Notes: generated by a model not told the origin, from the letters alone. Shown: positions 28,364-58,987, counted from the stretch's first letter. The stretch is 64,000 nt of DNA from an uncultured Thermoplasmata archaeon (GCA_963768855.1 CAVYJM010000006.1:896001-960000); one strand, 5' to 3'. Translations and numbers: made by a program.

Positions 28364-28479
28364 TGCGGGGGATGGGATTTTCCGCCCGGCGCCTCTGGAC
28401 GCGGGGCCTTTGAACCCATGAACTCCTTCGAGACGGGATTTTAAGTCCCGCGCCGTTGTTCTAGCTTGGCTACCCCCGC
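28364..28479 (-). tRNA. tRNA-Leu(TAA) with a 31-nt intron in the T-loop (59/60; intron 28378-28408)
   Basis: GCGGGGG/CCCCCGC-A acceptor stem, CGGGA-CTTAAAA-TCCCG anticodon arm, long variable arm, ATGGG-TTCAAA[intron]T-CCCAT; spliced length 85 nt. Confidence 0.9.
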
Positions 28480-28628
28480 GCGCCGCGCATCGGACCTGCC
28501 GTATAATGCCTTTGGGGTGACCGTGTCCGGGGACGGGCGGGAGCAGCAACTACCGTACGGGGGTGACTCCTGTCCGGAAGGCGGAGGCTCCGCGAGCCTT
28601 TATTACGCGCCGGAGGGGTGCCCCGCTC

Positions 28629-29393
28629 ATGGGGCGACTCGCCGGCAGGACAGCGATCGTGACCGGCGGGAGCGGAGGAATCGGCCGGGCCACGGCTCTC
28701 GCATTCGCGCAGGAAGGCGCCGACGTGGTGGTTCAGTATCGCGGCGGCCAGAAGAGCGCCGAGGAGACCGCCAGAGCCATCCAGGCACTCGGCCGGAAGG
28801 GCCTTCCGCTCTCTGCGGACGTCTCCGATCCTGCATCCTGTCGACGGCTGGTCGAGGAGGTCCTGAAGCAGCTCCCTGCGATCGACATCCTCGTGTGCAC
28901 CGCGGGCCACCCGTTCCGTCGCGAGGAATGGTTCAAGGAGTTCACATCCCTGAGCCCGGAGGAGATCCGCCGTCCGCTCGACGTGGACCTCCTCGGGTCC
29001 GTCTTCATGGCCCAGGCGGTCCTCCCCGGCATGACTCGACAACGCCGCGGCAGCCTCGTCCTCATCGGTTCGACACCCGCGCTCACCGGCGATGTCGTCG
29101 GCATTCCTTACCTCATCGCGAAGGCAGGCCTCCTGGCCTTGACGAGGGCACTCGCCCAGAAGTACGGCCCGGACGGCATCCGCGTGAATGCCCTCGCGCT
29201 CGGGAGCATCGACACGGAGGCGATGGCGGGCCTCTCCGACGCGGACCGGGCGGCGCTCGCCGAGGAGCCCGCCTTGAAGCGGCGGGGGACGCCTGAGGAG
29301 GTCGCGCACGCGATCGCCTTCCTGGCCTCGGACGACGCATCCTACGTCACGGGCCAGACGCTGGTCGTGGACGGCGGCTACGCACTCCGGTGA
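28629..29393 (+). CDS. Short-chain dehydrogenase/reductase
   Basis: TGGSGGIG, YLIAK (YxxxK), IRVNAL, YVTGQTLVVDGG. Confidence 0.95.
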   Translation: MGRLAGRTAIVTGGSGGIGRATALAFAQEGADVVVQYRGGQKSAEETARAIQALGRKGLPLSADVSDPASCRRLVEEVLKQLPAIDILVCTAGHPFRREEWFKEFTSLSPEEIRRPLDVDLLGSVFMAQAVLPGMTRQRRGSLVLIGSTPALTGDVVGIPYLIAKAGLLALTRALAQKYGPDGIRVNALALGSIDTEAMAGLSDADRAALAEEPALKRRGTPEEVAHAIAFLASDDASYVTGQTLVVDGGYALR

Positions 29394-29402
29394 CCGCGGA
29401 CG

Positions 29403-29663
29403 TCAACGGGCCGTGGTCTCGCCGCCCTCGAGGGCGTAGGTCATCTGCTCGTTACACGCATGGCAGGTGACGACGAGCTTCGGCCCGCCGCCCCGGAACT
29501 GCTCGTGAACGATCCAGTGACAGCGGCCGCAGCGGGAGACGAGGCGGATCTCCTCCTGATGGCCCCGAACCCGGAGGAACAATCCTTCGTCCGTGCTGCG
29601 CCAGCCTTTGACCACGAAGCCCAGGGACTCGTCAAACGGGACGTCGCGCACCACGGCCGTCAC
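29403..29663 (-). CDS. Small zinc-ribbon hypothetical protein
   Basis: CGRC...CHAC; start codon uncertain. Confidence 0.55.
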   Translation of the reverse strand: MTAVVRDVPFDESLGFVVKGWRSTDEGLFLRVRGHQEEIRLVSRCGRCHWIVHEQFRGGGPKLVVTCHACNEQMTYALEGGETTAR

Positions 29664-29691
29664 GACCGTGTCGCCATGGATGCCGCGCCAC

Positions 29692-30237
29692 TTACGCTTT
29701 GCCCCGCGCTGCTGGGTAAGTGATGCGTCCCCCGCGGACCTTCGCGAACGGCGCGAGCTCGTGTTCCTGCGTCTTCCCCGGCGATAAGATGTGGAGGACG
29801 CGCACGCGCCGGACGACGAGGGCATCGGAGAGGAGCCCGCGGTGGCATCGCCAGGGCACCGCCTCGGCGCACATGATCGCGGTCCTCCGCTCCTTCGCGA
29901 GGGCAACCAGGCGGTCCAGGGCCGTCCGGAAGGCATCCGTCTCCATGTAGTCCGCGTAGCCACGGAACCCCGTGTTCCTCCATCCTGTGTTCGGGGAATC
30001 AGGCCGGGGCTTGCGGTATCCTCCGAGGTCTACGAGGTGCTCGTAGGCGAGGCCCGCCTCTCGCAGGTTCGCGGCGAGGACGGGCTGGTTCGTCCACGGC
30101 ACACGGGCCGAGGCCGGGTAGTGGCGCACGTCGACGAGGAGGGCGATCTCGTGCTCCCGCAGGAGGGCGAGGAAGTCCTCCCATGTGCGAGTCGAGTGGC
30201 CCAGGGTCCAGAGAGTAGCTTCCGCAGGGACGAGCAT
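29692..30237 (-). CDS. DUF488 family protein
   Basis: TLGHSTR, LVDVRHYP, LGGYRK, AIMCAEAVPWRCHR. Confidence 0.9.
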   Translation of the reverse strand: MLVPAEATLWTLGHSTRTWEDFLALLREHEIALLVDVRHYPASARVPWTNQPVLAANLREAGLAYEHLVDLGGYRKPRPDSPNTGWRNTGFRGYADYMETDAFRTALDRLVALAKERRTAIMCAEAVPWRCHRGLLSDALVVRRVRVLHILSPGKTQEHELAPFAKVRGGRITYPAARGKA

Positions 30238-30283
30238 GGCGCGGGCGCACGGAACGCGCGTCGGCCGGATGAAGGTGCGCGCG

Positions 30284-30631
30284 TCAGCGGTACGTCTGGC
30301 ACCGCGAGCAATACCAGCGTCCGTACTGGGGCACCCAGGAGAGCGGCGAGCTGCAGACCGGGCAGAGGGGCTGGCTGTACTGGGCCTGGCCCGGCGGCGC
30401 GGGCATGCCCGCCGCGGGCGGCTCGGGCGGATACGCGTACGGCGGGCTCGAGGGATACCCGTAGCCCGGGGCCGCGTATTGGTGCGACCTCGACTGGGCC
30501 GTCGCCACGAAGACAATCCCGATGATGAGAAGGAGAATGCCGATGCCGCAGATCGGCCAGAAGAGGAAGCCGACGGCCATGAGGACCACCCCGAGCACGA
30601 CGAACACGATCCCGATTTCCTCGTCCGGCAT
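30284..30631 (-). CDS. Two-TM protein with Pro-rich linker and C-terminal zinc ribbon
   Basis: Hydrophobic hairpin, PYAYPP linker, CPVC...WYCSRC. Confidence 0.75.
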   Translation of the reverse strand: MPDEEIGIVFVVLGVVLMAVGFLFWPICGIGILLLIIGIVFVATAQSRSHQYAAPGYGYPSSPPYAYPPEPPAAGMPAPPGQAQYSQPLCPVCSSPLSWVPQYGRWYCSRCQTYR

Positions 30632-30703
30632 GAAACCCCTGCCGCGTCGGCATCGCCCGGGAGCCATAAATACGTGGGGAGGCGGAGCCTCGGAGTATCC
30701 GCC

Positions 30704-30949
30704 CTACGCGACGTTCACCGGCCGGACGGTCGAGCCCAACAGGGAACGGCGGCAGGTGCACTCCCGAGCGGCCCCGCATCCGATGCAGAAGAACTCATGC
30801 TTCTCGATGTCGAACGCGACCGAAGACCCGCAGCCGCAGGCCGTGGGCTTCAGGATGCGCCGTGCACGGACTTCGCGGTGGCGGACCGCGGGGACCGACA
30901 CCGCAGCGGAACCGGACGATCTCAGGCTCTCCTCGACCATGTGGATCAC
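30704..30949 (-). CDS. Small Cys-rich hypothetical protein
   Basis: CGCG...CIGCG...CTC. Confidence 0.55.
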   Translation of the reverse strand: MIHMVEESLRSSGSAAVSVPAVRHREVRARRILKPTACGCGSSVAFDIEKHEFFCIGCGAARECTCRRSLLGSTVRPVNVA

Positions 30950-31049
30950 CGGGCTGGTTGCCTGCTATTATTTTCCACGAGCTCCTATAAAAACCTGACG
31001 CGGGTTGCCCCCAGCCGACGGGTTCGCCCCCGCTCGGAAGCCAGGGATC

Positions 31050-32753
31050 CTATGTCTTCCGGACCTCTTCGTAGAAGTACTCGTCCGGTCCCTTCTCGAG
31101 ACCCGAGCGGGCCTCGACCTCCTTCGACCGCAACTCGATTCGGCGGATTTTGCCGCTGATCGTCTTCGGCAGCTCCGTCACGAACTCGATGATCTTCGGG
31201 GCCTTGTACGGCGCCAGGTTCGTCCGGGTGAACTGGAAGAGGTCGTCCGCCAGGGCGCGCGACCCCGCGTGTCCCGGACGCAGGACCACGAAGGCCTTCA
31301 CGACATTCCCGCGGATGGGGTGGGGGCTGCCCACGACGGCGGCTTCGGCCACCGCCGGATGCTCGAGCAGAGCGCTCTCGACCTCGAACGGCCCGATCCG
31401 GTAGTCGGACGCCTTGATCACATCGTCCGTCCGGCCGACGAACCAGAGGCGTCCCTCCGGGTCGCGGAAGGCCCGGTCCCCGGTCCGGTAGAGGTTGTTC
31501 GCGAACACCTGCGCATACCGGTCCGCGTCTGGGCCCACGTACCTTGCGAACAGGCCGATGGGGCGCGGGTCGAGGCGGACGGCGATGTCGCCCTCCTCGT
31601 CTGTGGGGACCTCGGTTCCGTGCTCGTCCACGAGCAGGACGTCGTACAGGAACGACGGGCGACCCATGGAGCCCAGCTTCACCTCGTCCCCCGGGAGGTT
31701 GCCGACCATGAGGGTGCTCTCCGTCTGCCCGTAGCCGTCGCGGATTGTGAGGCCGGTAGCCAGGCGCCACGCCACGATGACCTCCGGGTTGAGCGGCTCT
31801 CCCGCGCTCACGACCTCTCGCAGGCTGAACCGGTATTTCGGCAGGTCCTCGAGGACGAACATCCGCCACACCGTCGGCGCCGAGCAGAAGGTCGTGACCT
31901 TGTGGTCTTGGATCGCCGCGAGGTGCTTCGACGCAACGAAGCGGCCGGCGTAGCCGTACGCAAAGACGGTGGCCCCGACCGTGAGCGGGGCGAAGAAGGA
32001 GCTCCACGCGAACTTGGCCCAACCCGGCTGGCTGATGTTGTAGTGGACGTCCCCCGAACGGACGCCGATCCAGGCGGCGGTCGCGAGGTGGCCGATCGGG
32101 TAGCTGGCGTGGGTGTGGACGACCATCTTCGGAAGACCCGTCGTCCCGGACGTGAAGAAGATCAGGAGGGTGTCGCTCGATCGCGTCCGTTCCGCCTCCG
32201 CGCTCTCGGGATAGCGGGAGATTTCGGAGGCTCCCAGCCATCCGGGTCGTTGGTCTCCAGCCAGGATCTTGACCGTCGCGGTCTTCCCCCGGCTCTTCTC
32301 CGCCGCGTCGATCTTCTCCGCGCTCGCCGCATCGGCGAGGACGGCCGCGGGCTGGAGCTGGGAGAACCGGTACGCGATGTCCTTCTCGGTCAGGATCGTA
32401 GCGGCGGGGACGAGGACGAAGCCGCCCTTAATCGCCGCGTAATAGCTGAACCAGACCTCGGGGACCACGGGGAGCATCACGAAGACCGTGTCGCCCTTCC
32501 GCAGGCCGTGCTCGCGCAGAAGGTTCAGGAGCTGATTGCCCCGCGCGGCGAGCTCCGCAAAGCTGAAACGGTGCGCCCGTTCCGCCTCGTCCAGGTAGAG
32601 GAGGGCCGTCTCGGAACCCCGCTCGGTCGTGTAGAGCGGCTCGAAGAGGTTCGACGCCCAATTGAAGAACTCCGGGATTGCCGGTCGGGCCCGGCGCAAC
32701 GAGTCGTAGTCCTGGACCTGGATCAGCTGGAGGGCGTCGAGGACGTCAGTCAC
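31050..32753 (-). CDS. Acyl-CoA synthetase (AMP-forming, ACSM-like)
   Basis: FFTSGTTGLPK, DGYGQTE, YRTGD, GRTDDVIK, LPKTISGKIRR. Confidence 0.95.
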   Translation of the reverse strand: MTDVLDALQLIQVQDYDSLRRARPAIPEFFNWASNLFEPLYTTERGSETALLYLDEAERAHRFSFAELAARGNQLLNLLREHGLRKGDTVFVMLPVVPEVWFSYYAAIKGGFVLVPAATILTEKDIAYRFSQLQPAAVLADAASAEKIDAAEKSRGKTATVKILAGDQRPGWLGASEISRYPESAEAERTRSSDTLLIFFTSGTTGLPKMVVHTHASYPIGHLATAAWIGVRSGDVHYNISQPGWAKFAWSSFFAPLTVGATVFAYGYAGRFVASKHLAAIQDHKVTTFCSAPTVWRMFVLEDLPKYRFSLREVVSAGEPLNPEVIVAWRLATGLTIRDGYGQTESTLMVGNLPGDEVKLGSMGRPSFLYDVLLVDEHGTEVPTDEEGDIAVRLDPRPIGLFARYVGPDADRYAQVFANNLYRTGDRAFRDPEGRLWFVGRTDDVIKASDYRIGPFEVESALLEHPAVAEAAVVGSPHPIRGNVVKAFVVLRPGHAGSRALADDLFQFTRTNLAPYKAPKIIEFVTELPKTISGKIRRIELRSKEVEARSGLEKGPDEYFYEEVRKT

Positions 32754-33026
32754 GAAGGCTGGACGACGGCATCAGGGACTTGATGTTTTTGTCTTGTCGA
32801 GCACGGGTCCTCGGCGGGACGCGGCGGTCCGCGGCGCCGGTTCCGGTTGGGTTCTGGACGCACCGGTGGCGGTCGTGGTCATCCCATTCATCGTATGTCA
32901 AGTCGCGTACATGGAGGCCGTCTATCGTCGTCGGTTGATTGTCTGAAACGGGAGCCGCACCGGGAAGCATTCGCTTCGTTGTTCGAGATCGCGTGAGCTG
33001 TGCCCCGTCTCCCCCGAGCGGAGACG

Positions 33027-33320
33027 CTACGTCCCTCGAAGCCGACGATACGCGAAGACGCTTACGATGACAAGCACCATCGACACGAGGTACCAGAACA
33101 CCACGTCGATGAGGAGGGAAACCAGCACGAACTCCGCCGATCCCAAAGGACCTCCCGGCATGTAGGCGTAGCACTGGGCGTAGAAGTACCGCGGATAGCC
33201 GATGACGGTCCCGCCCTCGATGCACATCGTGGACTTTAGGTATGCCGTGGAGAGGCCGAAGAACAAGGCAAAGAGGACAAGGGTGGGGATTTGCCACGTA
33301 AGGTACTCACTGGGTCTCAT
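33027..33320 (-). CDS. Small two-TM hypothetical protein
   Basis: Two hydrophobic segments around a GYP-containing loop with two Cys. Confidence 0.6.
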   Translation of the reverse strand: MRPSEYLTWQIPTLVLFALFFGLSTAYLKSTMCIEGGTVIGYPRYFYAQCYAYMPGGPLGSAEFVLVSLLIDVVFWYLVSMVLVIVSVFAYRRLRGT

Positions 33321-33617
33321 CGTCCGTCCGGAGGCGAATCAGCTTCTCCGCGCATAATCCCTCGGAATCCGTTAGGTGACCACAGGACGAGTGCCCCCGC
33401 GCGTCGGCACGAGCGTCCGGAAGGGCCATGCCGACGCTGGCCGTGGGTGCGGCTGCCGGAAGGGTCCTGCGGGGAAGCATGTTCGCGAAAGGGGAGTTGC
33501 CCCTCCTCATTCCCTCGAGGGATACGCGAAACCATTCAAGCGCGTCCCAAGGCCATCCCCCTGGGGCGTTGGACCCCGGGCTCCAGGGGCTCGCCCTAGG
33601 AAATGAAAGCCCTGCCG

Positions 33618-34031
33618 CTAGCGCCGGTCCGTACCCTTCGTCCTAGGGTCGTCCTTCGGGTTCGCGTAGAAGATGTCGAATGGCTTCGACCCATAGGCCA
33701 GGAAGATGCACTCCCCCGGAGTGTGAGCCACGTACCGCATGTCTCCAGGCAGGAAGAAGAAGCCTCCCTCCCGGATGGCCACGTTAGGCCGGCCGTCGCG
33801 GCGGATTGTCATGGAGCCTTTCATGAGCACCACCGCCACGTCGTTCGTGTGCCAGTGGGTGGGCACGGTGAATCCCGCGGGGAACCGGGCGATGAACGCG
33901 TACTCGCCCTCCGTCGGGTCCCCGTGCACCGTGGCCGAAGATGCACCAGGGGGCAGCGCTTCCTTCGGCTCCCATTCGAATTCCGAAGGGTTCACGACTA
34001 CCATTGGATCGTCAGTTGACTTACCTTCCAT
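33618..34031 (-). CDS. Cupin domain protein (DUF4437-like)
   Basis: HGDPT...FPAGFTVPTHWHT...LPGDMRYVAH; GGGGAG SD. Confidence 0.85.
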   Translation of the reverse strand: MEGKSTDDPMVVVNPSEFEWEPKEALPPGASSATVHGDPTEGEYAFIARFPAGFTVPTHWHTNDVAVVLMKGSMTIRRDGRPNVAIREGGFFFLPGDMRYVAHTPGECIFLAYGSKPFDIFYANPKDDPRTKGTDRR

Positions 34032-34240
34032 GAACTCCCCTTGGGTCGCCACTAATGCGAGAGGCTCTCATTAATCCTGCGAAGACTCGGACGAAGCAGC
34101 CTTCCTCGCCAACTGAAAGAGTGCGGGAGGGACTCAAGAGCGAATAGCCCAGGGTTGGGTGCAAGGGGGCACCCTCAGAGCCTCGCCAGCCCGACGGACC
34201 GGCAAGCTGGGACCCAATTGGTATTACCCCGTGAGAAGAA

Positions 34241-34354
34241 TGGGTCCGTCCGGATTTGAACCGGAGTCGCCAGCACCCCAAGCTGGTAGGATTTCTTGTG
34301 GGTGGGCAGGCCGACGAGGGCCCCCGCACGCAAACCAAGCTACCCCACGGACCC
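34241..34354 (-). tRNA. tRNA-Pro(GGG) with a 41-nt intron in the D-loop (20/21; intron 34293-34333)
   Basis: GGGTCCG/CGGACCC-A acceptor stem, CCAGC-TTGGGGT-GCTGG anticodon arm, TCCGG-TTCAAAT-CCGGA T arm; spliced length 73 nt; lies after rpoN. Confidence 0.9.
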
Positions 34355-34417
34355 GCGGGCGTCCTCGAACGGTTGCCGAGCTAAATAGTTTCTAGTCCGT
34401 CCCGGCGGTTCGGGCTC

Positions 34418-34609
34418 TCAACCAAAGGGGGCGACCTCGTCGATCAGTTCGGCGTGGGAGAGGATCATCCGGCGGCAACAGTACCGCGTGAGGCCCAGCT
34501 CGTCGAGGACCTTCCGCGGTTCCTCGCCGTTCCGGGTGCGCTCGACGAAGGGCTGCCATGCACTGGAGACGACCTTCCCACAGGTGAAGCAACGGACGGG
34601 GATGATCAT
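34418..34609 (-). CDS. rpoN: RNA polymerase subunit N (Rpo10)
   Basis: [11 protein letters not shown]...RYCCRRM. Confidence 0.97.
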
Positions 34610-34613
34610 GGAC

Positions 34614-35015
34614 TCACCGGTACGACTTCTGGCGCTTCTTGCGCGCGCCCCGGCCGAGGGGCTTCTTCGGCAGCTTCCGCCGGGTGTCGGGCACGATCAG
34701 CGTGCGGTCGTATTCGCGGAAGAGGAGCTCGAGGTCCTGGTCGTTGAGGTACTGAACGAGGCCCCGCGCGATCGCAGTGCGGACCGCGTCCGCCTGCCCC
34801 ATCACGCCGCCTCCCTGGACATTGACGTTGATGTCGACCGTCTCGGCCTTCTTGCCCGCGAGCTTGAGCGGCTCGAGGATCTTCATCCGGGCGAGCTCGT
34901 GGGGGAAGATCTCGACGGGAACGCTGTTCACGCGGACAATGCCCCGCCCCTTCGTGAGGCTGGCCCGGGCCACCGCCGTCTTCCTCTTCCCGCTCGCCAC
35001 GACCGCCTTCGCCAT
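34614..35015 (-). CDS. rps9: 30S ribosomal protein uS9
   Basis: [30 protein letters not shown]. Confidence 0.97.
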
Positions 35016-35023
35016 GATGACAC

Positions 35024-35455
35024 CTAGAACTTGGAGCCGAGCATCCGGGAGATTTCTCCCAGGCTCATGACGGGTCCCTGCGGAGGCCGCTTCGCCGTCG
35101 CGATGGTCTCGAACGGTCCCGCCTTGTACTCCGCGGGGACGTCCATGTAGACGCGGAGGCGTTTCAACGCTTCCCTCCCGCGGGCCTGCTGGTGCGGCAC
35201 CATCCGACTAATCGTCCTCCGGAGGATCATGTCCGGACGCCGCGGGAACAGGGGCCCGACGCCGCGCATGCGGCTTGCCGTGCTCCCGAGCTCCCGCTTG
35301 TGCTTGTAGACATTGAAGACCCTGCTTCGCTTCCCGGTGATGATCGTCTTCTCCGCGTTGACGATGACGATCTCCTCGCCGCGCAGGATGCGCTTCGCGA
35401 CCTCGGAGGAGAGCCGACCGAGCACGTGACCGGTGCCGTCGATGATGACCGCCAT
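35024..35455 (-). CDS. rpl13: 50S ribosomal protein uL13
   Basis: IIDGTGHVLGRLSS, IVNAEK, PRRPDMILRRTI. Confidence 0.95.
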   Translation of the reverse strand: MAVIIDGTGHVLGRLSSEVAKRILRGEEIVIVNAEKTIITGKRSRVFNVYKHKRELGSTASRMRGVGPLFPRRPDMILRRTISRMVPHQQARGREALKRLRVYMDVPAEYKAGPFETIATAKRPPQGPVMSLGEISRMLGSKF

Positions 35456-35457
35456 GC

Positions 35458-35820
35458 TTACCCCAGGATCCGGACGCCGCTGCCCTTCGGGTTCTGGACC
35501 GCGAGCTCGAGGAGGCTCACGGATCGCCCGCCGGCCGCCTCGACCTTCTTCCGCGCGGCCGCGGAGGCGCGGAACGCCGCGACGGTCACCGGAACGCTCA
35601 GGTCTCCCGTTGCGAGCAGGACGCCCGGCACGACGAGCTGCTCGCCCTTCGCGGCGTAGCGGCTGACGCGCGAGAGGTTGACCTCGGACCAGTTCTTGCG
35701 CGAGCGCTCCAGCCGGTCCGCCACATCCCGCCAGATCGCGACCCCGTTCTCGCGGGAGAGCTCCCGCAGCTCGTGCACGACCCGGGTGAGTTGAGAGTTC
35801 GTCTTGGGGGTCCTGGCCAT
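35458..35820 (-). CDS. rpl18e: 50S ribosomal protein eL18
   Basis: KTNSQL, IWRDVA, EVNLSRV, VVPG, SAAARKK. Confidence 0.95.
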   Translation of the reverse strand: MARTPKTNSQLTRVVHELRELSRENGVAIWRDVADRLERSRKNWSEVNLSRVSRYAAKGEQLVVPGVLLATGDLSVPVTVAAFRASAAARKKVEAAGGRSVSLLELAVQNPKGSGVRILG

Positions 35821-39398: not shown

Positions 39399-39404
39399 GC
39401 CGCT

Positions 39405-46387: not shown

Positions 46388-46388
46388 C

Positions 46389-50567: not shown

Positions 50568-50630
50568 CCGCGCTGGTCAAGCCCTCGCGACCATCCGCTA
50601 CAAATAGGTCCGGCGCCAGACGTGTCCTCC

Positions 50631-51185: not shown

Positions 51186-51256
51186 CTCGCTCCGGGCGTT
51201 TGAGAATCCTGAGGTAACCTTTATCAGGCCTCTCCTGTGTTCCGCGGACGATTCCG

Positions 51257-51745
51257 ATGCCCTCCGCCGAAGAGGAAATCGCCGCAGGCGAGCAGGCCCT
51301 GAGCACCCTCGACTACGACGCCGCCTACAAGCACTTTGACAAGGCGTGCAAGGCGGACCCGAAGAACTCCGTCGCGTTCTTCGGTAAGGCGGAGTCCGCG
51401 CTCGGCGTGCCCAAGGCGGAAGCGGAGGAGATCCTCGGCCTGTACAAGAAGGCGATCGAGCTGGATCCGGAGAACCCCGGATACCACGACGCCCTCGCGT
51501 CGTTCTGCGTCGACCTCGGTCGGTTCAACGAGGCGGAGGAGCACTACAACAAGGCCGCCGCCCTCGACGAGGACAACGCCCCGTTCTACTGGTCCGAGTT
51601 CGCGATCAACTACGCCCGCAAGGCGCCCGTGGCGATGCAGCAGTTCCTTGATGACAAGACGCGGGACATGATCCGCGCGAAGGCCCTCACGTACGCGCTC
51701 AAGGCGCTCGACATCGGGAAGGACGACGCGAAGCGCGTCCTGTGA
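51257..51745 (+). CDS. TPR repeat protein
   Basis: Repeated helical TPR pattern (YKKAIELDPEN, YNKAAALDEDN). Confidence 0.85.
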   Translation: MPSAEEEIAAGEQALSTLDYDAAYKHFDKACKADPKNSVAFFGKAESALGVPKAEAEEILGLYKKAIELDPENPGYHDALASFCVDLGRFNEAEEHYNKAAALDEDNAPFYWSEFAINYARKAPVAMQQFLDDKTRDMIRAKALTYALKALDIGKDDAKRVL

Positions 51746-51746
51746 C

Positions 51747-51902
51747 TCAGCTGCGCACTCCGGTCCGCGCCCGGCGCCCCACGCGACAGGCGACACACAC
51801 GCCATCTGGGCCCAGATGCTCCTCGCACGTGGGACGTCCGCATGCCACGCACGTTCTCAGGGTGGGACGGCTGCAGACCTGGCACAGCCCGGGCACGACC
51901 AT
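51747..51902 (-). CDS. Cys-rich zinc-finger microprotein
   Basis: CQVC...CVACGRPTCEEH...CVAC. Confidence 0.7.
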   Translation of the reverse strand: MVVPGLCQVCSRPTLRTCVACGRPTCEEHLGPDGVCVACRVGRRARTGVRS

Positions 51903-51976
51903 CGGAGCGGTATGTTCCTGCAAGGCGAAGAGGTTTCGCCCCTCGCGGCGCAACGAGGCGTGCGTGGGCGGGGTCG

Positions 51977-52864
51977 TCACGGCGCGCGCAGCTCGCCGAA
52001 CGTGGCGGCGCGCTCCGCGAACGCGTTGTGCTTGTGGATCGATTCTTCGGCCTCGGACTTCACCCGCACCCAGGTGGCGTCCGGCAGCTTCGGATACTTG
52101 GCGAGGAGCCGGTCCAGGACCTCCCGCACGACGTCCTCGACGAAGCGGGGGTTCGCGTGCGCGAGTTCCACGAGTCGCCCTTCATCGGGCCGCTTCAGGA
52201 GACCGTACGTGGGCGCGGACATGGACGCCTCGACGATGTCGATCAGGTCGTCCGCTTCGATGTCGAACCCGTCCGGCTCCTGGAGGATCAGGGTCGTGCG
52301 GTTCCTCTGGTTGTGCGTCACGAAGGGGATGTCCTCGGGCCACGCCTTGATCTCCGGATGTTCCTTGACGAGGCGATCCCGCACCATCTCCATGGCGCAC
52401 GGGCAGGCGGTCATCCCGATCGCCTCGACGCCGATCGACCGCTCCACCGACGCGGATCCGCGGTGCGCGTTCGCGCGCGCCACGAGGTGGTACGGCTCCA
52501 TCGAGGTGTGGCCCCAGGGCGACTTCCGTTCCAGGAAGTAGTCCGCCCGCGCCCAGACCTCCGACGTGGTCGCGTACTCGTGCTTCTTCAGGAGCTGCCG
52601 CGCGATCGTCTCGGTGAGCTCCTCGAGGCTCCCGACGGGTTCTCGGACGGAGCGGTCCACCAGCTCGTTGATGACCTCCATGTTCCGCGAGAGGTGGGAG
52701 CCTTTCTGCTCCGGAGGCAGGTCCACGAAGACGTCCAAGGACGTGGTCAAGGTGAGATTCCGGCCCTTCCGGCGGATCTCCACGGGCTTCTGCACGCCCG
52801 TCACGCCGACCTTGTTCAGCCGGTACGAGTGATTCGCATTCTCGTTCTGGATGTCGCGGGGGAT
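51977..52864 (-). CDS. mptA: GTP cyclohydrolase MptA (FolE2 family), apparent ATC start
   Basis: DIQ...LNKVGV, QKGSHLSR, TACPCA, HNQR, ESIHKH. Confidence 0.92.
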   Translation of the reverse strand: MPRDIQNENANHSYRLNKVGVTGVQKPVEIRRKGRNLTLTTSLDVFVDLPPEQKGSHLSRNMEVINELVDRSVREPVGSLEELTETIARQLLKKHEYATTSEVWARADYFLERKSPWGHTSMEPYHLVARANAHRGSASVERSIGVEAIGMTACPCAMEMVRDRLVKEHPEIKAWPEDIPFVTHNQRNRTTLILQEPDGFDIEADDLIDIVEASMSAPTYGLLKRPDEGRLVELAHANPRFVEDVVREVLDRLLAKYPKLPDATWVRVKSEAEESIHKHNAFAERAATFGELRAP

Positions 52865-52901
52865 GCGGCTGCCTCCCGGGGTGGCCAGTTCTGCGGTGGA
52901 C

Positions 52902-53336
52902 TTAAAGATTGTCGGCGTCCCCCACGACTTGGACGAGGACCTCGCGCCGCCTCGGCTTGTTGTCCAGCTCGAGGAACACGACCTGTTGCCAGGTGCCGAG
53001 GGCGAGCTTCCCGTCCACGACGGGAACGGTCAGGCTCGGGCCGAGGAAGGCCGCGCGCACATGGCTGTGACCGTTGCCATCGCCCCAACGCTTCTCGTGG
53101 CCGTACGCCAGGTCCTCCGGGAACAGCCGTCCCAGCGCCGCCGGGAGGTCTTCCTCCATGAGGCCCGCCTCGAACTCGTTCGTCAGGATCGCGGAGGTGC
53201 TGCTTGGGGCGAAGACACACGCCAGTCCGGCCCGAATCTTCGACCGGCCGACTGCATCGGTCACCTCGCGGGTGATATCGAGCGCTTGCGGTCCGGTTCG
53301 CGTGGAGAGATGCAGGGTCTCCGTGTGGACGGCCAT
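52902..53336 (-). CDS. YjbQ/UPF0047 family protein
   Basis: NGHSHVRAAFLG, LGTWQQVVFLELD. Confidence 0.92.
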   Translation of the reverse strand: MAVHTETLHLSTRTGPQALDITREVTDAVGRSKIRAGLACVFAPSSTSAILTNEFEAGLMEEDLPAALGRLFPEDLAYGHEKRWGDGNGHSHVRAAFLGPSLTVPVVDGKLALGTWQQVVFLELDNKPRRREVLVQVVGDADNL

Positions 53337-53383
53337 GCCCCGCGGTACGGGCCTGGCTCGCAAGAAGCTTCCCCCCGTCGGCG

Positions 53384-53444
53384 GAAAGAAAGGGTCGCGA
53401 GGGCCGCCCGGCGCCTTGCGGCGCCGGTCGCCCGATGCCCTCGC
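53384..53444 (-). terminator. Hairpin with GCAA tetraloop and pyrimidine tract after the ftsZ-like gene
   Basis: CCGGCGCC-GCAA-GGCGCCGG inside an 8-bp outer stem, followed by CTTTCTTTCC on the minus strand. Confidence 0.55.
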
Positions 53445-53490
53445 GGGTGGGCGTGTTGGGGGGAGGAGTTACGTAAGATGGAAAGGGGGC

Positions 53491-54267
53491 TCAGCGGAGC
53501 CCGATGAATCCGTTGTCGTCGAACGCCACGGGTGCGACCTCCCAGGCCGCCTGGACCGTCTCCGGAGGCTGGACCTCCATGTGGACCGCGTGGCTGTTCT
53601 GTTCCTCGATCTCCCTCGCCACGGTCTCGACCTCCTCGGCGACCGTGGACAGGAAGGACTTCTCGAGATGGTCGACGACGCCCTCGACGATGGCCGCGAC
53701 CATGTAGTTCACGACCTGGAGCGCCTCGTTGAAAGAGAGGTGGTCCGCGAACTTGTTGAGGGAGTTGTTGTCGACGACGATCAGGCTGTCCGCCTCACGA
53801 CGGAGGTCCTCGAGTCCCGCCTTCGCGGTCTCGGAGCGGCCTTCCATGTCGAAGGGGACGATGCCGATTGCGATCGTCACGGCGCCGTTCGCGCGCGCGG
53901 CCCGGGCCACGACGGGCGCAGCGCCCGTTCCGGCGGCACCGCCCATGCCCGCGACCACGAACACGATGTCCGAGGACAGGGTGTCCTTGAAGTTCCCTTC
54001 GGAGCCTTCCGCGGACGTTCGCGCGGCGAGCACCCGGTCCTCACCGTCGACGTGGCTCAGCAGGATCTTGAAGTCCGCGGCGGACTTGGAGAGTCCGGCC
54101 GGATCCGTGTTGACCGCCACGGTCTCGACGCCCTTCAGGTCGCGATCGTAGAGCGCGCTCACCACGTTGCCGCCGGCACCGCCGATGCCGACCACGCTGA
54201 TCTTCGGATCGACGGCGTCCTCGAACAGTCCGTTGATGACTTCGTCGACATAGTCTCGGGGTATCAT
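53491..54267 (-). CDS. Short FtsZ/tubulin-family protein (N-terminal GTP-binding domain only)
   Basis: VVGIGGAGGNVV, AVNTD, AGMGGAAGTG, IVVDNNSL; no NxDxxD T7 loop and no C-terminal domain. Confidence 0.85.
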   Translation of the reverse strand: MIPRDYVDEVINGLFEDAVDPKISVVGIGGAGGNVVSALYDRDLKGVETVAVNTDPAGLSKSAADFKILLSHVDGEDRVLAARTSAEGSEGNFKDTLSSDIVFVVAGMGGAAGTGAAPVVARAARANGAVTIAIGIVPFDMEGRSETAKAGLEDLRREADSLIVVDNNSLNKFADHLSFNEALQVVNYMVAAIVEGVVDHLEKSFLSTVAEEVETVAREIEEQNSHAVHMEVQPPETVQAAWEVAPVAFDDNGFIGLR

Positions 54268-54438
54268 TCACCTAGCCTCCGCCTCGCGTACGCCCCTCGA
54301 TCGACGATCGAGGGAGGCCAGAGGGGAACTCCTCGTCTGAAGGCGTGCATCCCATCCCTTCATGACTGATCCCATCCCATTCCCTTTTTCCTGGATTGAG
54401 GCTTTCCCTTCTGGCATCCGACACGCCCCGCAGCTCAT
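54268..54438 (-). CDS. Candidate 56-aa microprotein (MSCGAC...)
   Basis: ATGA overlap with the RHH gene stop; its TGA directly abuts the ftsZ-like ATG. Confidence 0.5.
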   Translation of the reverse strand: MSCGACRMPEGKASIQEKGNGMGSVMKGWDARLQTRSSPLASLDRRSRGVREAEAR

Positions 54439-54830
54439 GGCGGGATGACACCGTCCTTCTCGCCCGTGGATACGGAGACCACCCGGCCCGTTGTCTTGTC
54501 GATCTCCTGCCGGTGGTCTTGGATCTCCTTCACCCGCGCCCGCGTGAACCACTCCTCGATGCTGCGGACGATCGCGTGCTCCCGGCTGAGGAAGTACCCG
54601 TCCGTCACGAGGCGGTCGATCAGCTCCAGGTAGTACCTCGGGACGTGAATCGACACCGTGTTGCCCTCGCCCCGAAGGCTCTGGATGAACGACTGGACGG
54701 CATCGCGAACGAGCTGCGAGCGGCTGTCGTACGACTTGTTCTCTTTCAAGAACGCATCGACCAGCTCGAGGTTCTCCTTCTCGAGCCGCAGTGTGATCCG
54801 CTCGTTCTCGTCCATCCCGGTCCCGTCCAT
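54435..54830 (-). CDS. Tandem ribbon-helix-helix (CopG/CdrS-like) regulator
   Basis: RITLRL...SRSQLVRDAV and VSIHVP...LIDRLV..GYFLSREHAIVRSI. Confidence 0.85.
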   Translation of the reverse strand: MDGTGMDENERITLRLEKENLELVDAFLKENKSYDSRSQLVRDAVQSFIQSLRGEGNTVSIHVPRYYLELIDRLVTDGYFLSREHAIVRSIEEWFTRARVKEIQDHRQEIDKTTGRVVSVSTGEKDGVIPP

Positions 54831-54842
54831 TTCACGCGGTCG

Positions 54843-54951
54843 GTATGACGAGGGTCACACCGTCCTTCCCCGCATGATTTTGGCGTGTTGTCTGACGGTA
54901 TCCGGGGGGTCTTTATAAATACGTTTTGTCAAGCGTCATACGACGTATGAC
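54843..54951. promoter_or_regulatory. Promoter of the RHH-ftsZ operon with GTCATAC/GTATGAC half-sites
   Basis: TTTATAAAT (54912-54920); perfect GTCATAC-GAC-GTATGAC (54935-54951); GTATGAC-N4-GTCACAC (54843-54860). Confidence 0.55.
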
Positions 54952-55110
54952 AAGTTCTCCATCCGTTCCGGAACGGGGGCGGAATCGGGGACGCGGATTT
55001 TTATCGGACATACCCGATGCAAAACGGTCCCGACGCGCGAGTCCCGCCGTGCGCTCCGGACACCGCGGCGGCTACGAAAAGCTTTACGACGGGCGTCCGT
55101 TCAGGCGCGC

Positions 55111-58100
55111 GTGGCGAAGCGGTCGAGGGGCACGCCATCGCGTCGGCGGCCTCGCCCGGCGAGGCGAAAGGGGGCCCGTCCGCGGAAGGACCGGACCCGG
55201 GCGCGCGTCCCCGTGACGAAGCGATCGAAGAAGGCGCCCAAGCCGCGTCGCACGACGCTTCCTCGTCGTCCGTCGAAACGAACGCGGGTGCGCGCTCGCG
55301 CACGCCCTGTCACACGAAAGGTGCGTCGGAGGAGTCCGCGGCGCACATCCGGGAAGATCGCGCCCCCTGCCCGCCCCCGTCGCCGGGTCGCGCCTGTGGC
55401 GCATCCGAGGGACCTCGATTTCCGCTCAATTGAGCAGAAATGGCAGGACGCATGGTCCCAGGCGGGGCTCTTCGAGGCGACCGCCGCACCCGGGAAGCCG
55501 AAGTGGTACTCCAACGTCCCGTACCCCTACATGTCGGGGTACCAGCACATGGGGTTCGGGGTCTCCTTCCTTCGGGCCGAGTTCCAGTCGCGCTTCCGGC
55601 GGATGCGGGGGTACAACGTCCTCCATCCGCAGGCGTTCCACTGCACGGGCCTGCCCATCCTCGGCGCCGCAAAGCGGGTGGCGGAGGGAGAGCCCGGGCA
55701 ATTGAAGATCCTCGAGCAGATGGGCGTGCCCGCTTCTGAGGTCCCCGCGTTCGCGGACCCCCTGCACTGGATCGAGGTCTTCCCGCAGGCCACGATCGAG
55801 GACCTGAAGGGCCTCGGCGCCGCCGTGGACTGGCGGCGGTCGTTCATCACGACCGAGCTGAACCCGCCGTACGACGCGTTCGTTCGCTGGCAGTTCCGCC
55901 GCCTCCGGGACGGGGGCTACGTGAAGATCGACAAGCACCCCGTGATCTGGTGCCCCAAGGACCAGGCCCCCATCGGGGACCACGACCGACTCGAGGGCGA
56001 GGGCGTCACGCCCCAGGCGTTCACCCTCCTCAAATTCCCCCTCGCCGATGGACGCATCCTCGTCGCGGCGACCATCCGCCCCGAGACGGTCTTCGGCCAG
56101 ACGAACATCTGGGTGGACCCCGCAGCCGAGTACCTGGTCGCCGCGGTGGACGGGGAGCGCTGGATTCTGAACGAGTCGGCCGCGGCGAAGCTGGGGGAGC
56201 AGGGAAAGAAGGTCACCCGCGAGGCAACCTTGCGCGGCGCCGACCTGGTGGGCCAGGAGGGCATCGCACCCATGATCAACCGCGCGGTCCCCGTGCTCCC
56301 CGGCGCATTCATCGACCAGGGCCGGGGGACGGGCATCGTGACGAGCGTCCCCTCCGATGCGCCCGACGACTATGTCGCGCTGCGGGAGGTGCAGGGGGAC
56401 GACGCGCTCCTCGAGCGATACGGGCTCGACAAGGACCGCATCCGGTCGATCGAGCCCTTCCCGATCATCAAGACTCCGGGCTGGGGCCCCCTCCCCGCGA
56501 AGGAGATCGTCGAGCGCATGGGGATCACGAGCCAGCGGGACAAGGACCGCCTCGCCGCGGCGAAGGCGGAGGTCTACAAGTCCGGGTTCTACCAAGGGGT
56601 CATGAACGAGCAGTGCGGCTCCTACGCCGGCATGCGCGTCGAGATCGCGAAGGAGGAGATCCGCAAGGAGCTCCTGGCGAACCGCCTCGCGGACACGATG
56701 TACGAGCCGAGCGCCGAGGTCGTATGCCGTTGTACGACGCGCGCGATCGTGAAGGTCGTCGAGGACCAGTGGTTCCTTGCCTACGGCGACGCGGCCTGGA
56801 AGACGAGGGCCCACGAGGGCCTCGCGAAGATGACCCTCTACCCGGACTCGATCCGGAAGCAGTTCGACTACGTGATCGACTGGCTCCAGGACTGGGCTTG
56901 CTCGCACCACAAAGGCCTCGGGACGAAGCTCCCCTGGGACGACCACTGGGTCATCGAATCCCTGTCCGACTCCACGATCTACATGGCGTACTACACGATC
57001 GCCCACGTGCTCCAGGGCGGCAAGCTGCGGAGCGAGGTGCCCTGGGCGGCCCGCCTCGACGACGCGTTCTTCGACTACGTGTTCCTGGGCCTCGGAGACG
57101 CGGCGTCCGTCGCCTCGCGTCTCGGCCTCGCCGCAGAGGACGTCGACCGCCTGCGGGGGGAATTCACGTACTGGTACCCCTTCGAGCTTCGCAACACCGG
57201 CAAGGACCTTCTCCAGAATCACATGACCTTCTGCCTGTTCAACCACGTCGCGGTCTTCCCGCCCGAACTCTGGCCCCGCGGCTTCGGCGTCAACGGGTGG
57301 GTCCTCATGGCGGGCATGAAGATGTCCAAGTCCAAGGGGAATACGGTCTACATCCGGGACGCCCTGAAGGACTGGGGGGCGGACACGGTCCGCGCGACCG
57401 TCGCGAACGCCGGGGACGGCGTGGACGACCCGAACCTGGAGAAGGAGTTCGCCGCGTCGATCCGCGCCCGCCTGCGGGACTGGCATGCCTACGCGACCGG
57501 ACCGCATGAGACGAGGTCGGAGCGCCGGACGATCGACGCTTGGTTCCTGTCCGTCCTCAACCGGACGATCGCGTCGACGACCGCGGCCATGGAATCCATG
57601 AGCTACAAGGCCGCTCTCCGGATCGGATACTTCGACCTCCAGGCCGCCTGGTCCTGGTATCTGCGGCGGTGCGGCGGGCGGCCCCACGCGGAGGTCCTGA
57701 CGCGGTTCCTCGAGGTCCAGACCAAGATCCTGGCGCCGTTCACGCCCCACGTCTGCGAGGAGATCTGGCAGCGGATGGGTCGGGAGGGGTTCGTTTCCAG
57801 CGCGGTCTACCCGACGCCCGACGCTCCCGAGATCGATCCCGCGGCCGAGGCCGCGGAGGCCCTCCTTCAATCCACCCTCGGGGATGTGCGCGAGATCCTC
57901 AAGGTCACGGGGCTCAAGCCGCGGCGGATCGCCCTGTACGTCGCGCCCGCGTGGAAGGCGCGCGTGCGCGCCCTCGCGATCGAGCTCGCGCGCGCGGGGC
58001 CCGTTCCCATGAACGTGCTGATGGAGACCGTCCTCGCGGAACCCGGCATGCGGGAACGGGCTCGCGACGTCGCCGCCTATGCGAAGCGGGTCGCGGACGA

Positions 58101-58302
58101 CCTGCGGCGGACGAAACCGGACGACGCGGCCCGCCTGGCCGTGGCGGACGAGCTGTCCATGTTCTCGGAGAACGCGGACTTCGCGCGGGCCGAGCTCCGT
58201 TGCCGAGTCGATGTCTTCCGCGCCGACGACGCGGCGCGCTGGGATCCCGCGAAGAAGGCGGAGCACGCCGTGCCGGGACGACCCGCCATCTACGTGGAGT
58301 GA
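55111..58302 (+). CDS. leuS: Leucyl-tRNA synthetase with a 95-aa polybasic N-terminal extension (alternative start 55396)
   Basis: IEQKWQ, HMGF at the HIGH position, CP1 TIRPET and GTGIVTSVPSDAPDD, GKDL, KMSKS. Confidence 0.93.
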   Translation: MAKRSRGTPSRRRPRPARRKGARPRKDRTRARVPVTKRSKKAPKPRRTTLPRRPSKRTRVRARARPVTRKVRRRSPRRTSGKIAPPARPRRRVAPVAHPRDLDFRSIEQKWQDAWSQAGLFEATAAPGKPKWYSNVPYPYMSGYQHMGFGVSFLRAEFQSRFRRMRGYNVLHPQAFHCTGLPILGAAKRVAEGEPGQLKILEQMGVPASEVPAFADPLHWIEVFPQATIEDLKGLGAAVDWRRSFITTELNPPYDAFVRWQFRRLRDGGYVKIDKHPVIWCPKDQAPIGDHDRLEGEGVTPQAFTLLKFPLADGRILVAATIRPETVFGQTNIWVDPAAEYLVAAVDGERWILNESAAAKLGEQGKKVTREATLRGADLVGQEGIAPMINRAVPVLPGAFIDQGRGTGIVTSVPSDAPDDYVALREVQGDDALLERYGLDKDRIRSIEPFPIIKTPGWGPLPAKEIVERMGITSQRDKDRLAAAKAEVYKSGFYQGVMNEQCGSYAGMRVEIAKEEIRKELLANRLADTMYEPSAEVVCRCTTRAIVKVVEDQWFLAYGDAAWKTRAHEGLAKMTLYPDSIRKQFDYVIDWLQDWACSHHKGLGTKLPWDDHWVIESLSDSTIYMAYYTIAHVLQGGKLRSEVPWAARLDDAFFDYVFLGLGDAASVASRLGLAAEDVDRLRGEFTYWYPFELRNTGKDLLQNHMTFCLFNHVAVFPPELWPRGFGVNGWVLMAGMKMSKSKGNTVYIRDALKDWGADTVRATVANAGDGVDDPNLEKEFAASIRARLRDWHAYATGPHETRSERRTIDAWFLSVLNRTIASTTAAMESMSYKAALRIGYFDLQAAWSWYLRRCGGRPHAEVLTRFLEVQTKILAPFTPHVCEEIWQRMGREGFVSSAVYPTPDAPEIDPAAEAAEALLQSTLGDVREILKVTGLKPRRIALYVAPAWKARVRALAIELARAGPVPMNVLMETVLAEPGMRERARDVAAYAKRVADDLRRTKPDDAARLAVADELSMFSENADFARAELRCRVDVFRADDAARWDPAKKAEHAVPGRPAIYVE

Positions 58303-58307
58303 GCCCC

Positions 58308-58802
58308 GTGAAGATCCCCAAGGCGACGGAACCGGAGGCTCCCCCGTTCAAGCGCAAGCGCGGACCGCCGCCGCAGGCCACGAAGCTCCTCATCGCCTCG
58401 CTGGGCGCGGGGCTCGTGTTCATGGCCCTCCTGGCCATCGTCTTCGTCCCGCGCTACCTGGAGAACCTGAACCCGGCGCCGTCCACGCTCCTCACGCTCC
58501 AGCTGAACACGACCGCGGGAGCGCCCCGGATCGACGTGACGTTTGCCCTGTATGACCTCGACCTGTCCAAGTTCAACGCATCCCTGACGCGCGACAACGG
58601 GACGATCGCCTCCCTTCCTGCCGGCCTCGGCGGGACAGATGCCGGCTTGAACTTCACGGACACGAACCGGGACGGCAAGCTGGACGCGGGCGACTTCTTC
58701 ACGCTTCCCGCGGGACCCCAGGCCAACTACCGCTTCGAGGTCTGGCAGGTCGACGTGGACCATCGCGTCGGGCTCCTCGCGTGGACGGGCGCTCCCGGGT
58801 GA
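58308..58802 (+). CDS. Membrane-anchored surface protein with a DxNxDG Ca-binding-like loop
   Basis: Basic N-terminus, one TM helix, FTDTNRDGKLDAGD. Confidence 0.7.
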   Translation: MKIPKATEPEAPPFKRKRGPPPQATKLLIASLGAGLVFMALLAIVFVPRYLENLNPAPSTLLTLQLNTTAGAPRIDVTFALYDLDLSKFNASLTRDNGTIASLPAGLGGTDAGLNFTDTNRDGKLDAGDFFTLPAGPQANYRFEVWQVDVDHRVGLLAWTGAPG

Positions 58803-58851
58803 GGTCGCCCGTCGGAATCCTTATCTAACGGCGCACATTAGGCCGCGCCGC

Positions 58852-58987
58852 GGGCCTGTAGCTTAGCTAGGTAGAGCGATCGGCTCTTATCGCCGCGCCT
58901 GTCGGACCGTCGAGAGACACCGATAGGTCAAGGGTTCGAACCGGCTGCGGGCATCTCCCCGCCGCCCCGGAAATCCCTTCAGGCCCG
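58852..58987 (+). tRNA. tRNA-Lys(CTT) with two introns: 37/38 (58890-58918, 29 nt) and T-loop 59/60 (58941-58973, 33 nt)
   Basis: GGGCCTG/CAGGCCC-G acceptor stem, ATCGG/CCGAT anticodon stem, AAGGG/CCCTT T stem; spliced length 74 nt; CCTTATCTAA TATA-like element upstream and T-tract downstream. Confidence 0.92.

Follow-up and report, generated by a model that had tools for sequence, protein, structure and literature searches.

The accepted picture of archaeal tRNA splicing ties non-canonical introns (those outside position 37/38) and multiple introns to heterotetrameric or loop-bearing forms of the splicing endonuclease, EndA. Studies have reported that the α4 and α′2 enzymes need a strict hBHBh′ motif, in which the bulge-helix-bulge (BHB) stands between an outer and an inner helix, and that broad specificity is given by the loops L1 (the Crenarchaea-specific loop, CSL), L2 (the ARMAN-specific loop, ASL) and L3 (PMC3239211, PMC5829648). 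According to both studies (Fujishima et al. 2011, PMC3239211; Kaneta et al. 2018, PMC5829648), disrupted tRNA genes are also more numerous in organisms whose EndA has such inserts. The stretch of DNA described here, referred to as the window, is a 64-kb part of an uncultured Thermoplasmata archaeon (G000:C6:896001-960000; CAVYJM010000006.1 of assembly GCA_963768855.1), the genome of which amounts to 2.87 Mb in 24 contigs with 66% G+C. Three of the four tRNA genes of the window are interrupted within the T-loop or the D-loop. Such introns occur across the order to which the archaeon belongs, together with a three-intron tRNA-Lys and a two-intron initiator tRNA, beside a plain, loop-less, two-unit EndA. 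This makes the lineage a natural and easily tested case for setting motif geometry alone against other determinants of specificity.

Several described systems resemble this one in part. In the Thermoproteales and Thaumarchaeota, short BHB introns lie outside 37/38, with up to three per gene, and both 59/60 and D-loop sites are known. Their EndA is an (αβ)2 enzyme with the CSL/L1, whereas a single two-unit gene without this loop is present here. The density of the present genome, 7 non-canonical introns in ~47 genes, is within the crenarchaeal range of the tRNAscan-SE 2.0 census (PMC8450103, Table S7). ARMAN-2 (Ca. Micrarchaeum acidiphilum; PMC3239211) also has 59/60 T-loop introns, some strict and some relaxed, but its EndA has three units (ε2; 4FZ2) and the ASL loop, while the EndA considered here has two units and gaps at those places. 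Korarchaeum cryptofilum, by its description, shares a single-polypeptide, two-unit α2 EndA together with non-canonical and multiple introns; it differs in that its catalytic unit is related to the (αβ)2 enzymes (PMC3239211).

For the Euryarchaeota, the same census lists 25 non-canonical introns in 144 genomes, and 6 of these introns with one two-intron gene in three Methanomassiliicoccales genomes. All 16 of its three-intron genes are in Thermoproteales and none in Euryarchaeota, whereas the present genome has one, tRNA-Lys(UUU). The Methanomassiliicoccales are related Thermoplasmata, and a metagenome-assembled genome (MAG) so labelled, E29_bin30, belongs to the order studied here and has the three-intron tRNA-Lys(UUU). 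At ~2 non-canonical introns per genome, with positions and enzyme uncommented, the census differs from the 7 per genome and the mapped distribution reported here. No paper treating tRNA introns in Methanomassiliicoccales, Thermoplasmata or Thermoplasmatota was found in the literature, and the genome papers of Borrel 2014 and Sheridan 2022 make no mention of such introns. The introns are of a known kind, and the phenomenon is already tabulated at a low level in the census.

An exception to the published rule is Methanopyrus kandleri, a euryarchaeon in which a loop-less EndA is found together with relaxed D-arm introns (HBh′, tRNA-Glu) and canonical ones. This enzyme is of constrained specificity; in vitro it is poor at cutting the HBh′ D-arm intron, although the cell does contain the mature tRNA (PMC5829648). 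The α and β subunits of M. kandleri are encoded by separate genes, in contrast to the one polypeptide here, and its 2 non-canonical introns in 35 genes compare with 7 in the present genome, mostly in the T-loop, as part of a trait that spans the order. The lineage is a second, much larger case of a loop-less EndA with relaxed introns.

Interrupted tRNA genes and their splice motifs

Default ARAGORN and Rfam searches call a single tRNA in the window, the intron-free tRNA-Ala(GGC) (22462-22535, minus strand; Rfam 62.5 bits), and an Rfam search of the window at E values up to 10 yields no tRNA beyond it. ARAGORN with introns allowed and a lowered threshold is uninformative, giving 402 calls in 64 kb. 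Three further tRNA genes were recovered by sequence reading and a weak whole-genome Rfam match, each the sole copy of its anticodon. The tRNA-Leu(UAA) gene (28364-28479, minus strand; 85 nt when spliced) contains a 31-nt intron at 59/60, between A59 and T60 of the T-loop (28378-28408, minus strand). The tRNA-Pro(GGG) gene (34241-34354, minus strand; 73 nt spliced) contains a 41-nt intron at 20/21, between T20 and A21 of the D-loop (34293-34333, minus strand). The tRNA-Lys(CUU) gene (58852-58987, plus strand; 74 nt spliced) has two introns, one of 29 nt at the canonical 37/38 site (58890-58918, plus strand) and one of 33 nt at 59/60 in the T-loop (58941-58973, plus strand). In the Rfam tRNA search of the genome, the unspliced Pro(GGG) and Lys(CUU) genes score 18.3 and 17.7 bits; once the introns are removed, default ARAGORN calls tRNA-Leu(taa), tRNA-Pro(ggg) and tRNA-Lys(ctt), with the expected anticodons. 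Upstream of each of the four window genes, at 25-35 nt, is an A/T-rich box, and downstream a T-rich tract follows. The initial annotation had described introns outside 37/38 in three of the four window tRNAs (two at 59/60, one at 20/21) and two introns in one of them, and sequence reading bears out both statements, the two-intron gene being Lys(CUU) with its 37/38 and 59/60 introns.

The same pattern extends through the genome. ARAGORN and Infernal find 37 intron-free tRNAs, and the missing anticodons were recovered through a pipeline of BHB scan and ARAGORN, pattern searches and BLAST of exons, with all hits vetted by eye. This gives a total of ~47 tRNA genes, 11 of which are interrupted by 15 introns. 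Seven introns are non-canonical, five at 59/60 and two at 20/21, and they reside in six genes: the three of the window, tRNA-Lys(UUU) (C6:475061; three introns, at 20/21, 37/38 and 59/60), the initiator tRNA (C11:139916-140051; 37/38 and 59/60) and a tRNA(CAU) (C6:1074410-1074516; 59/60). Default ARAGORN calls all 11 spliced products with the expected anticodons, and these complete the 46-anticodon archaeal set together with the 37 intron-free genes. No intact copy of any interrupted anticodon is present genome-wide, including Leu(UAA), Lys(CUU), Lys(UUU), Pro(GGG) and the initiator. The view that non-canonical introns are pervasive, put forward from four genes, therefore holds for the genome, in which the tRNA set is neither intron-free nor canonical and one gene has three introns. 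In practical terms, default ARAGORN and Rfam miss three of the four window genes and 6 of the ~47 in the genome, so that the tRNA complement of such genomes appears incomplete though it is complete.

The splice sites were assigned by the BHB rule, under which a 4-bp central helix separates two bulges of 3 nt, one on either strand, and cutting takes place after the second nucleotide of each bulge. The 37/38 intron of Lys(CUU) is a strict BHB, with the central helix CTCT/AGAG and the bulges TA|T and AC|A. For the 59/60 intron of the same gene, the minimum-energy fold is an hBHBh′ in which the T-stem is the outer helix, T54-G57 form the central helix TTCG/CGGA, the bulges are AA|C and AA|T, and a C.C mismatch occupies the first inner pair. 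The Leu(UAA) intron also uses the T-stem as the outer helix; its central helix, TTCA/GGAA, has three pairs and an A57.G mismatch, between the bulges AA|G and AA|T. In Pro(GGG) the central helix of C16-G18 with CAAG is perfect and the 5′ bulge is GT|T. Here, A14 and G15 lie between the D-stem, which is the outer helix, and the central helix. Because of this offset, the 3′ site AA|A21 falls in an internal loop instead of a clean 3-nt bulge, and the motif is relaxed. Each of the imperfections described earlier (a central mismatch, an inner C.C and a weak outer helix) is seen in Leu, Lys and Pro.

Genome-wide, a strict hBHBh′ is formed by the T-loop introns of Lys(CUU), Lys(UUU) and the initiator, three of the five at this site, in their minimum-energy folds, and also by most 37/38 introns. 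Four of the seven non-canonical introns are relaxed. In both 20/21 introns, the 3′ site falls inside an internal loop (2x3 or 3x4), and the T-loop introns of Leu(UAA) and the C6 tRNA(CAU) have a 3-bp central helix with the A57.G mismatch. Among the canonical introns, that of tRNA-Tyr has one central mismatch with the ARAGORN boundaries.

These features point to ordinary archaeal BHB introns at recurrent 59/60 and 20/21 sites, most likely cut by the single EndA of the genome. Within the class Thermoplasmata, they are found in a large uncultured branch. The splice motif of each intron appears to be built from the arm that it interrupts. At 59/60, the T-stem would serve as the outer helix, and nucleotides 54-57 would form the 4-bp central helix with the last six-to-three nucleotides of the intron. 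Of the two 3-nt bulges, cut after the second nucleotide, one would contain A58-A59 and the other the last two nucleotides of the intron. At 20/21, nucleotides 16-18 of the D-loop would take the same role.

Comparison among relatives shows how the motif is maintained. Across the genus, exons are 97-100% identical and the introns diverge yet keep their pairing. For the D-loop motif, a MAFFT alignment of 25 distinct sequences has 96.3% of its cells paired and double changes in all six inner pairs; none of 500 shuffles reaches its score, and the pairing collapses when the registers are slid. For the T-loop motif, the 32 distinct sequences were aligned by fitting to the model, and in this alignment 90.2% of cells are paired, 71 cells show double changes, none of 500 shuffles reaches the score and slid registers again collapse. 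The BHB motif is thus kept by compensatory changes among relatives. A further observation concerns position 57 of the T-loop (columns 9/46 of alignment A3). A G at this position is paired with C in 25 of 25 sequences; where it is A, as in TTCAAAT loops, the intron partner is mismatched in six of seven distinct sequences. It looks as if the intron ends were made for TTCG loops even in TTCA tRNAs.

It could be supposed that the interrupted genes are decaying pseudogenes or the result of mis-binning, with the working tRNAs left unassembled or the interrupted genes derived from another organism. The genome is 93.6% complete with 7.7% contamination and has a second copy of one interrupted gene on the small contig C16, which leaves some room for this. 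Five of the six non-canonical genes, however, lie on the 1.13-Mb contig of the window and the sixth on a contig of 427 kb; promoter-like boxes and T-tracts accompany all the genes; and five essential anticodons, including the initiator, would be missing. The same interrupted genes are also found in dozens of independent assemblies, with the near-identical exons and compensatory intron changes described above. This explanation is already contradicted by recurrence, covariation and contig placement, and is scarcely credible.

Distribution and age of the introns

Two covariance models were used to follow the introns: R1, of the T-arm with its intron, at a cut-off of E <= 1e-4 for distribution, and R3, of the D-arm with its intron and with the alignment redone through the model, at E <= 1e-3. 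On the genome itself, R1 recovers the five 59/60 introns and the C16 duplicate at 45.8-63.8 bits, Leu(UAA) at the lower end (45.8) and Lys(CUU) at the upper (63.8), with the next best match at 17.7. The two 20/21 introns are recovered by R3 at 70 bits, for Pro(GGG), and 44.7 bits, followed by a match at 15.8. These scores confirm that the intron list is complete for the 59/60 and 20/21 sites of the genome, and the gap of ~28 bits or more argues that the window introns are not due to chance. With R2, a D-loop model built from Pro alone, the Lys introns score only ~10 bits. R3 misses the GTAG/CTAC variant of the Lutacidiplasmatales, and D-loop counts are accordingly lower bounds.

By R1, T-loop introns are present in 74 of the 79 genomes of the order, in all families; genus g2 is the sole genus of the order without a match (0 of 4 genomes). 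Genomes of the archaeon's own genus that are >=90% complete hold 2-6 each. D-loop introns are found by R3 in at least 64 of the 79 genomes of the order and in at least 23 of 151 of the class. Among 151 genomes sampled evenly across the class, 45 have T-loop introns. Family f17, which includes the Lutacidiplasmatales MAG SubAcS10-22, is the richest, with introns in 15 of 15 genomes and up to 9 in each. No R1 match was obtained in this sample from families f12 (0 of 16), f14 and f21, or from the Thermoplasmatales-like f20 and f24. In a sample of the phylum, 13 of 151 genomes match, including families outside the class. Outside the order, both T-loop and D-loop introns are patchy within the class, the Lutacidiplasmatales included. 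Mapped in this manner across the order, the intron positions represent a lineage trait, as the window had led the initial annotation to propose. EndA relatives at 74-92% identity come from MAGs of soil, wetland and sediment, under the labels Thermoplasmata archaeon, Methanobacteriota archaeon EA_* or uncultured Methanomassiliicoccales. The window DNA occurs in wetland and freshwater-sediment metagenomes.

The genes that carry introns were determined by spliced alignment of fetched loci. All three introns of Lys(UUU) are present in every genus genome examined (~20) and in E29_bin30, and two Lutacidiplasmatales-like genomes have the 20/21 and 59/60 introns of this gene. Both initiator introns are kept across the genus. 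The Leu(UAA) 59/60 intron has orthologues in the relatives G013, G005, G074 and G061. The Pro(GGG) 20/21 intron was recovered from 30 of 30 full-length genus loci, including one that bears the label g10 and is near-identical to the genus; 19 genomes from the sister genus and six other families lack it, and parsimony would make it a genus-level gain. The 59/60 intron of Lys(CUU) occurs in 7 of the 21 genus genomes as well as in families f4 and f7; f3 and f6 lack it. The 37/38 intron of the same gene is found throughout the genus, in f4, in f7 and in one f6 genome, and is absent from f3 and one f6 genome. The Ser(GGA) gene of relative G005 (locus L194) has a 33-nt T-loop intron and no 37/38 intron, while that of the present genome has a 26-nt intron at 37/38 and none in the T-loop. 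T-loop introns of the Lutacidiplasmatales lie in Ser, Arg, Glu, Asp, Ala, Gln and Lys genes.

Within the genome, introns of different tRNAs are weakly alike, with alignment z values of 2-5 against shuffles and a best score of 11 (for a 31-nt intron), and no near-identical copies were found among different tRNAs. Intron turnover thus appears to be present, with no sign of very recent copying within the genome. The recent spread proposed from the window is upheld in part. It agrees with the restriction of the Pro(GGG) intron to the genus and one neighbouring genome, and with the polymorphism of the Lys(CUU) 59/60 intron within the genus. It does not fit the genus-wide initiator intron, the Lys(UUU) introns shared across orders or the weak likeness of the introns. 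The patterns of presence and absence could stem from gains or from losses.

It has also been considered that the inserts are mobile hairpins that target the palindromic loops TTCGAA and CTAG, with a spread that is recent and ongoing and splicing competence as a by-product. As these sequences are self-complementary, a copy of the 3′ half at the end of an intron pairs with the loop by construction. The numbers of T-loop introns per genome (2-6 in the more complete genus genomes and up to 9 in Lutacidiplasmatales-like ones), the polymorphic Lys(CUU) intron, the Pro(GGG) intron confined to the genus and the g10-labelled genome, and the Ser(GGA) T-loop intron that in G005 replaces the 37/38 intron of the present genome are in keeping with such mobility. 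The weak likeness between introns of different tRNAs and the missing near-identical copies tell against it, as does the retention of the Lys(UUU) and initiator introns genus-wide, and of those of Lys(UUU) across orders. On balance, mobile hairpins are regarded as an improbable explanation.

The splicing endonuclease and motif recognition

The genome encodes one EndA (P0001), a protein of 374 amino acids from a single open reading frame (ORF) on contig C17, which matches PF01974 twice and PF02778 twice. No further match to either family is present anywhere in the genome; there are no separate α and β genes and no three-unit ε enzyme. The protein is laid out as two tandem units, each with an N and a C domain, the structural unit preceding the catalytic one. 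The catalytic triad of Y314, H322 and K353 resides in the C-terminal unit only, is invariant in 20 relatives and aligns with the triads of M. jannaschii and M. kandleri; the N-terminal unit is without the Tyr and His. The ligase RtcB, which would join the exons after cutting, is encoded on C6, the contig of the window.

Alignment with solved enzymes shows none of the three specificity loops. Exactly opposite the CSL/L1 of the A. pernix α subunit (3P1Z_B) there is an 11-residue gap. The ASL/L2 insert of ARMAN-2 (4FZ2) is likewise faced by a gap, both ARMAN-2 inserts being missing. A 7-residue gap relative to 4FZ2 is located between the catalytic Tyr and His, where we infer the insert of 4FZ2 to be L3 from the description in PMC5829648; there is no insertion here relative to 1A79. 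The catalytic unit is colinear with this loop-less EndA of M. jannaschii (1A79). The structural unit is of full length (PF01974 match 1-85 of 85) and is not shortened, unlike that of Thermoplasmatales, Archaeoglobales and Halobacteriales, in which a deletion has been described (PMC5829648). The EndA of families f20 and f24 (290-330 aa) correspondingly gives a strong match to residues 289-374 only.

An AlphaFold model of EndA has a pLDDT of 87.3. By both sequence and fold, the best match is the M. kandleri β-α fusion 5X89 (TM 0.82/0.90), and the next by fold is the A. fulgidus α′2 enzyme; 5X89 and 2GJW match over the full length. Modelled as a homodimer, the protein scores 0.68, against 0.00 for the best control, with a pLDDT of 86 and at least 92% of contacts shared between runs. 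Of 30 proteins solved as pairs, 20 reach that mark, as does 1 of 23 solved as single chains. A conserved acidic loop (179-183) lies in the predicted interface. The protein may therefore form a homodimer; the pass may also reflect its likeness to solved EndA dimers and is not proof. Cutting would be carried out by this homodimer of a two-unit protein, in effect a natural α′2 enzyme like the β-α fusion, without CSL, ASL or L3.

Across the class, EndA is a two-unit protein of ~350 aa without lineage-specific insertions, including in families where no T-loop intron was found. In f12, in which neither model found an intron in any of 16 genomes, one of them closed at 1,666,795 bp, the enzyme is colinear and has the same invariant residues. 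As the same EndA is present in intron-poor families, its architecture does not track intron load. The initial annotation had expected an atypical EndA of the (αβ)2 or ε2 type. This expectation was not borne out: a single two-unit endA without CSL/L1, ASL/L2 or L3 was found, colinear with that of relatives lacking detected T-loop introns, and three of the five T-loop introns are strict.

A related proposal is that the EndA of the lineage gained a broad specificity through substitutions or through its β-like structural unit, with no inserted loop, and so allowed the introns to spread. It is favoured by the departure of four of the seven non-canonical introns from the strict motif, and by the relaxed D-loop intron in 64 of 79 genomes of the order, which must be processed adequately. 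The unshortened structural unit and the match to the M. kandleri fusion also agree with it. On the other hand, there is no CSL, ASL or L3 insertion, the enzyme is colinear with the same invariant residues in families such as f12 where neither model found an intron, and the closest solved relative, the EndA of M. kandleri, is of constrained specificity (PMC5829648). A gain of this sort is therefore viewed as doubtful. It is similarly tentative, and less likely than the contrary, that a loop-less two-unit EndA with a full-length β-like unit is truly relaxed through an unrecognised determinant. On this reading, 59/60 and 20/21 would be hot spots because a hairpin inserted there, if it repeats the 3′ half of the self-complementary loop (TTCGAA or CTAG), makes a cleavable motif at once, a concrete route of intron gain. 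If this were true, the published rule by which a specific loop accompanies disrupted tRNA genes would fail for a whole branch of the Thermoplasmata.

The explanation considered most probable remains that of ordinary BHB introns cut by the single EndA. If it is the motif and not the position that is recognized, most of the introns need no broadened specificity. The relaxed ones, in the D-loop and in T-loops with A57.G, imply that the loop-less enzyme tolerates some departure in vivo, for which M. kandleri EndA provides a precedent (PMC5829648). Several points weigh against this explanation. The published rule ties α′2 and α4 enzymes to the strict hBHBh′ and broad specificity to CSL, ASL and L3 (PMC3239211, PMC5829648). 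With four of the seven non-canonical introns not strict, an ordinary narrow enzyme may not suffice. On sequence alone, runs of A leave the 59/60 splice sites ambiguous by 1-3 nt, and the sites given here presuppose the BHB rule. Given the completeness and contamination of the genome, a second endonuclease subunit might lie in the unassembled part. From the observed gene structure, motif geometry, covariation, distribution and EndA architecture, we infer that splicing occurs and that this EndA performs it. Most cases are accounted for by a T-arm that mimics the motif; an enzymatic explanation is still called for by the relaxed D-loop introns, which are retained throughout the order.

Apart from these questions, an EndA match with one in-frame TGA was seen in family f10 at loci L165, L167, L170 and L186 (genomes G182, G163, G188 and G115). 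One of these genomes is closed, at 1,975,906 bp. The TGA is either upstream of the true start or inside the gene.

Other tRNA features of the window and genome

On the minus strand of the window, at 33859-33946 and ~300 nt from tRNA-Pro, a sub-threshold match to the Rfam family SAM-Chlorobi was obtained (25.4 bits against a gathering score of 35; E 1.4), which is probably due to chance. In the search for missing anticodons, the candidates at C3:25484, C6:231726, C6:790189, C6:679616, C6:398423, C6:710095, C6:827173, C18:165067, C9:30663 and C11:321421 were dropped, as they resemble coding sequence. A "CTTTTA" loop on C7 sits inside an acetyltransferase-like ORF and is no tRNA.

Two non-initiator tRNA(CAU) genes, on C18 and C6, represent elongator Met and Ile2, in either assignment. 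The one with the 59/60 intron is found twice with identical scores, at C6:1074410-1074516 and at C16:1434-1540 on a contig of 3,993 bp. The second copy is probably assembly redundancy in a contaminated bin.

Four of the seven tyrosine-recombinase (PF00589) matches of the genome (C6:1041571-1042038, C6:128330-128656, C12:105892-106377 and C18:112748-113209) are located within ~250 nt of intron-free tRNA genes, namely Asn(GUU), two copies of Ser(CGA) and Asp(GUC). None of the seven adjoins an interrupted tRNA gene; with four events set against 37 intron-free and 11 interrupted genes, this is not significant. The pattern would fit disrupted tRNA genes escaping integration, and the masking of integrase sites, once suggested for the T-loop introns of the window, is at this point speculation.

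The remaining interrupted genes have a canonical intron only: tRNA-Tyr (39 nt), the C18 tRNA(CAU) (37 nt), tRNA-Gln(CUG) (27 nt), tRNA-Ser(GGA) (26 nt at 37/38, as noted above) and tRNA-Trp (C6:589458-589635, plus strand; 104 nt). The long Trp intron holds GTGATGA and CTGA elements, which suggests a box C/D guide RNA as known from the Trp introns of other Euryarchaeota.

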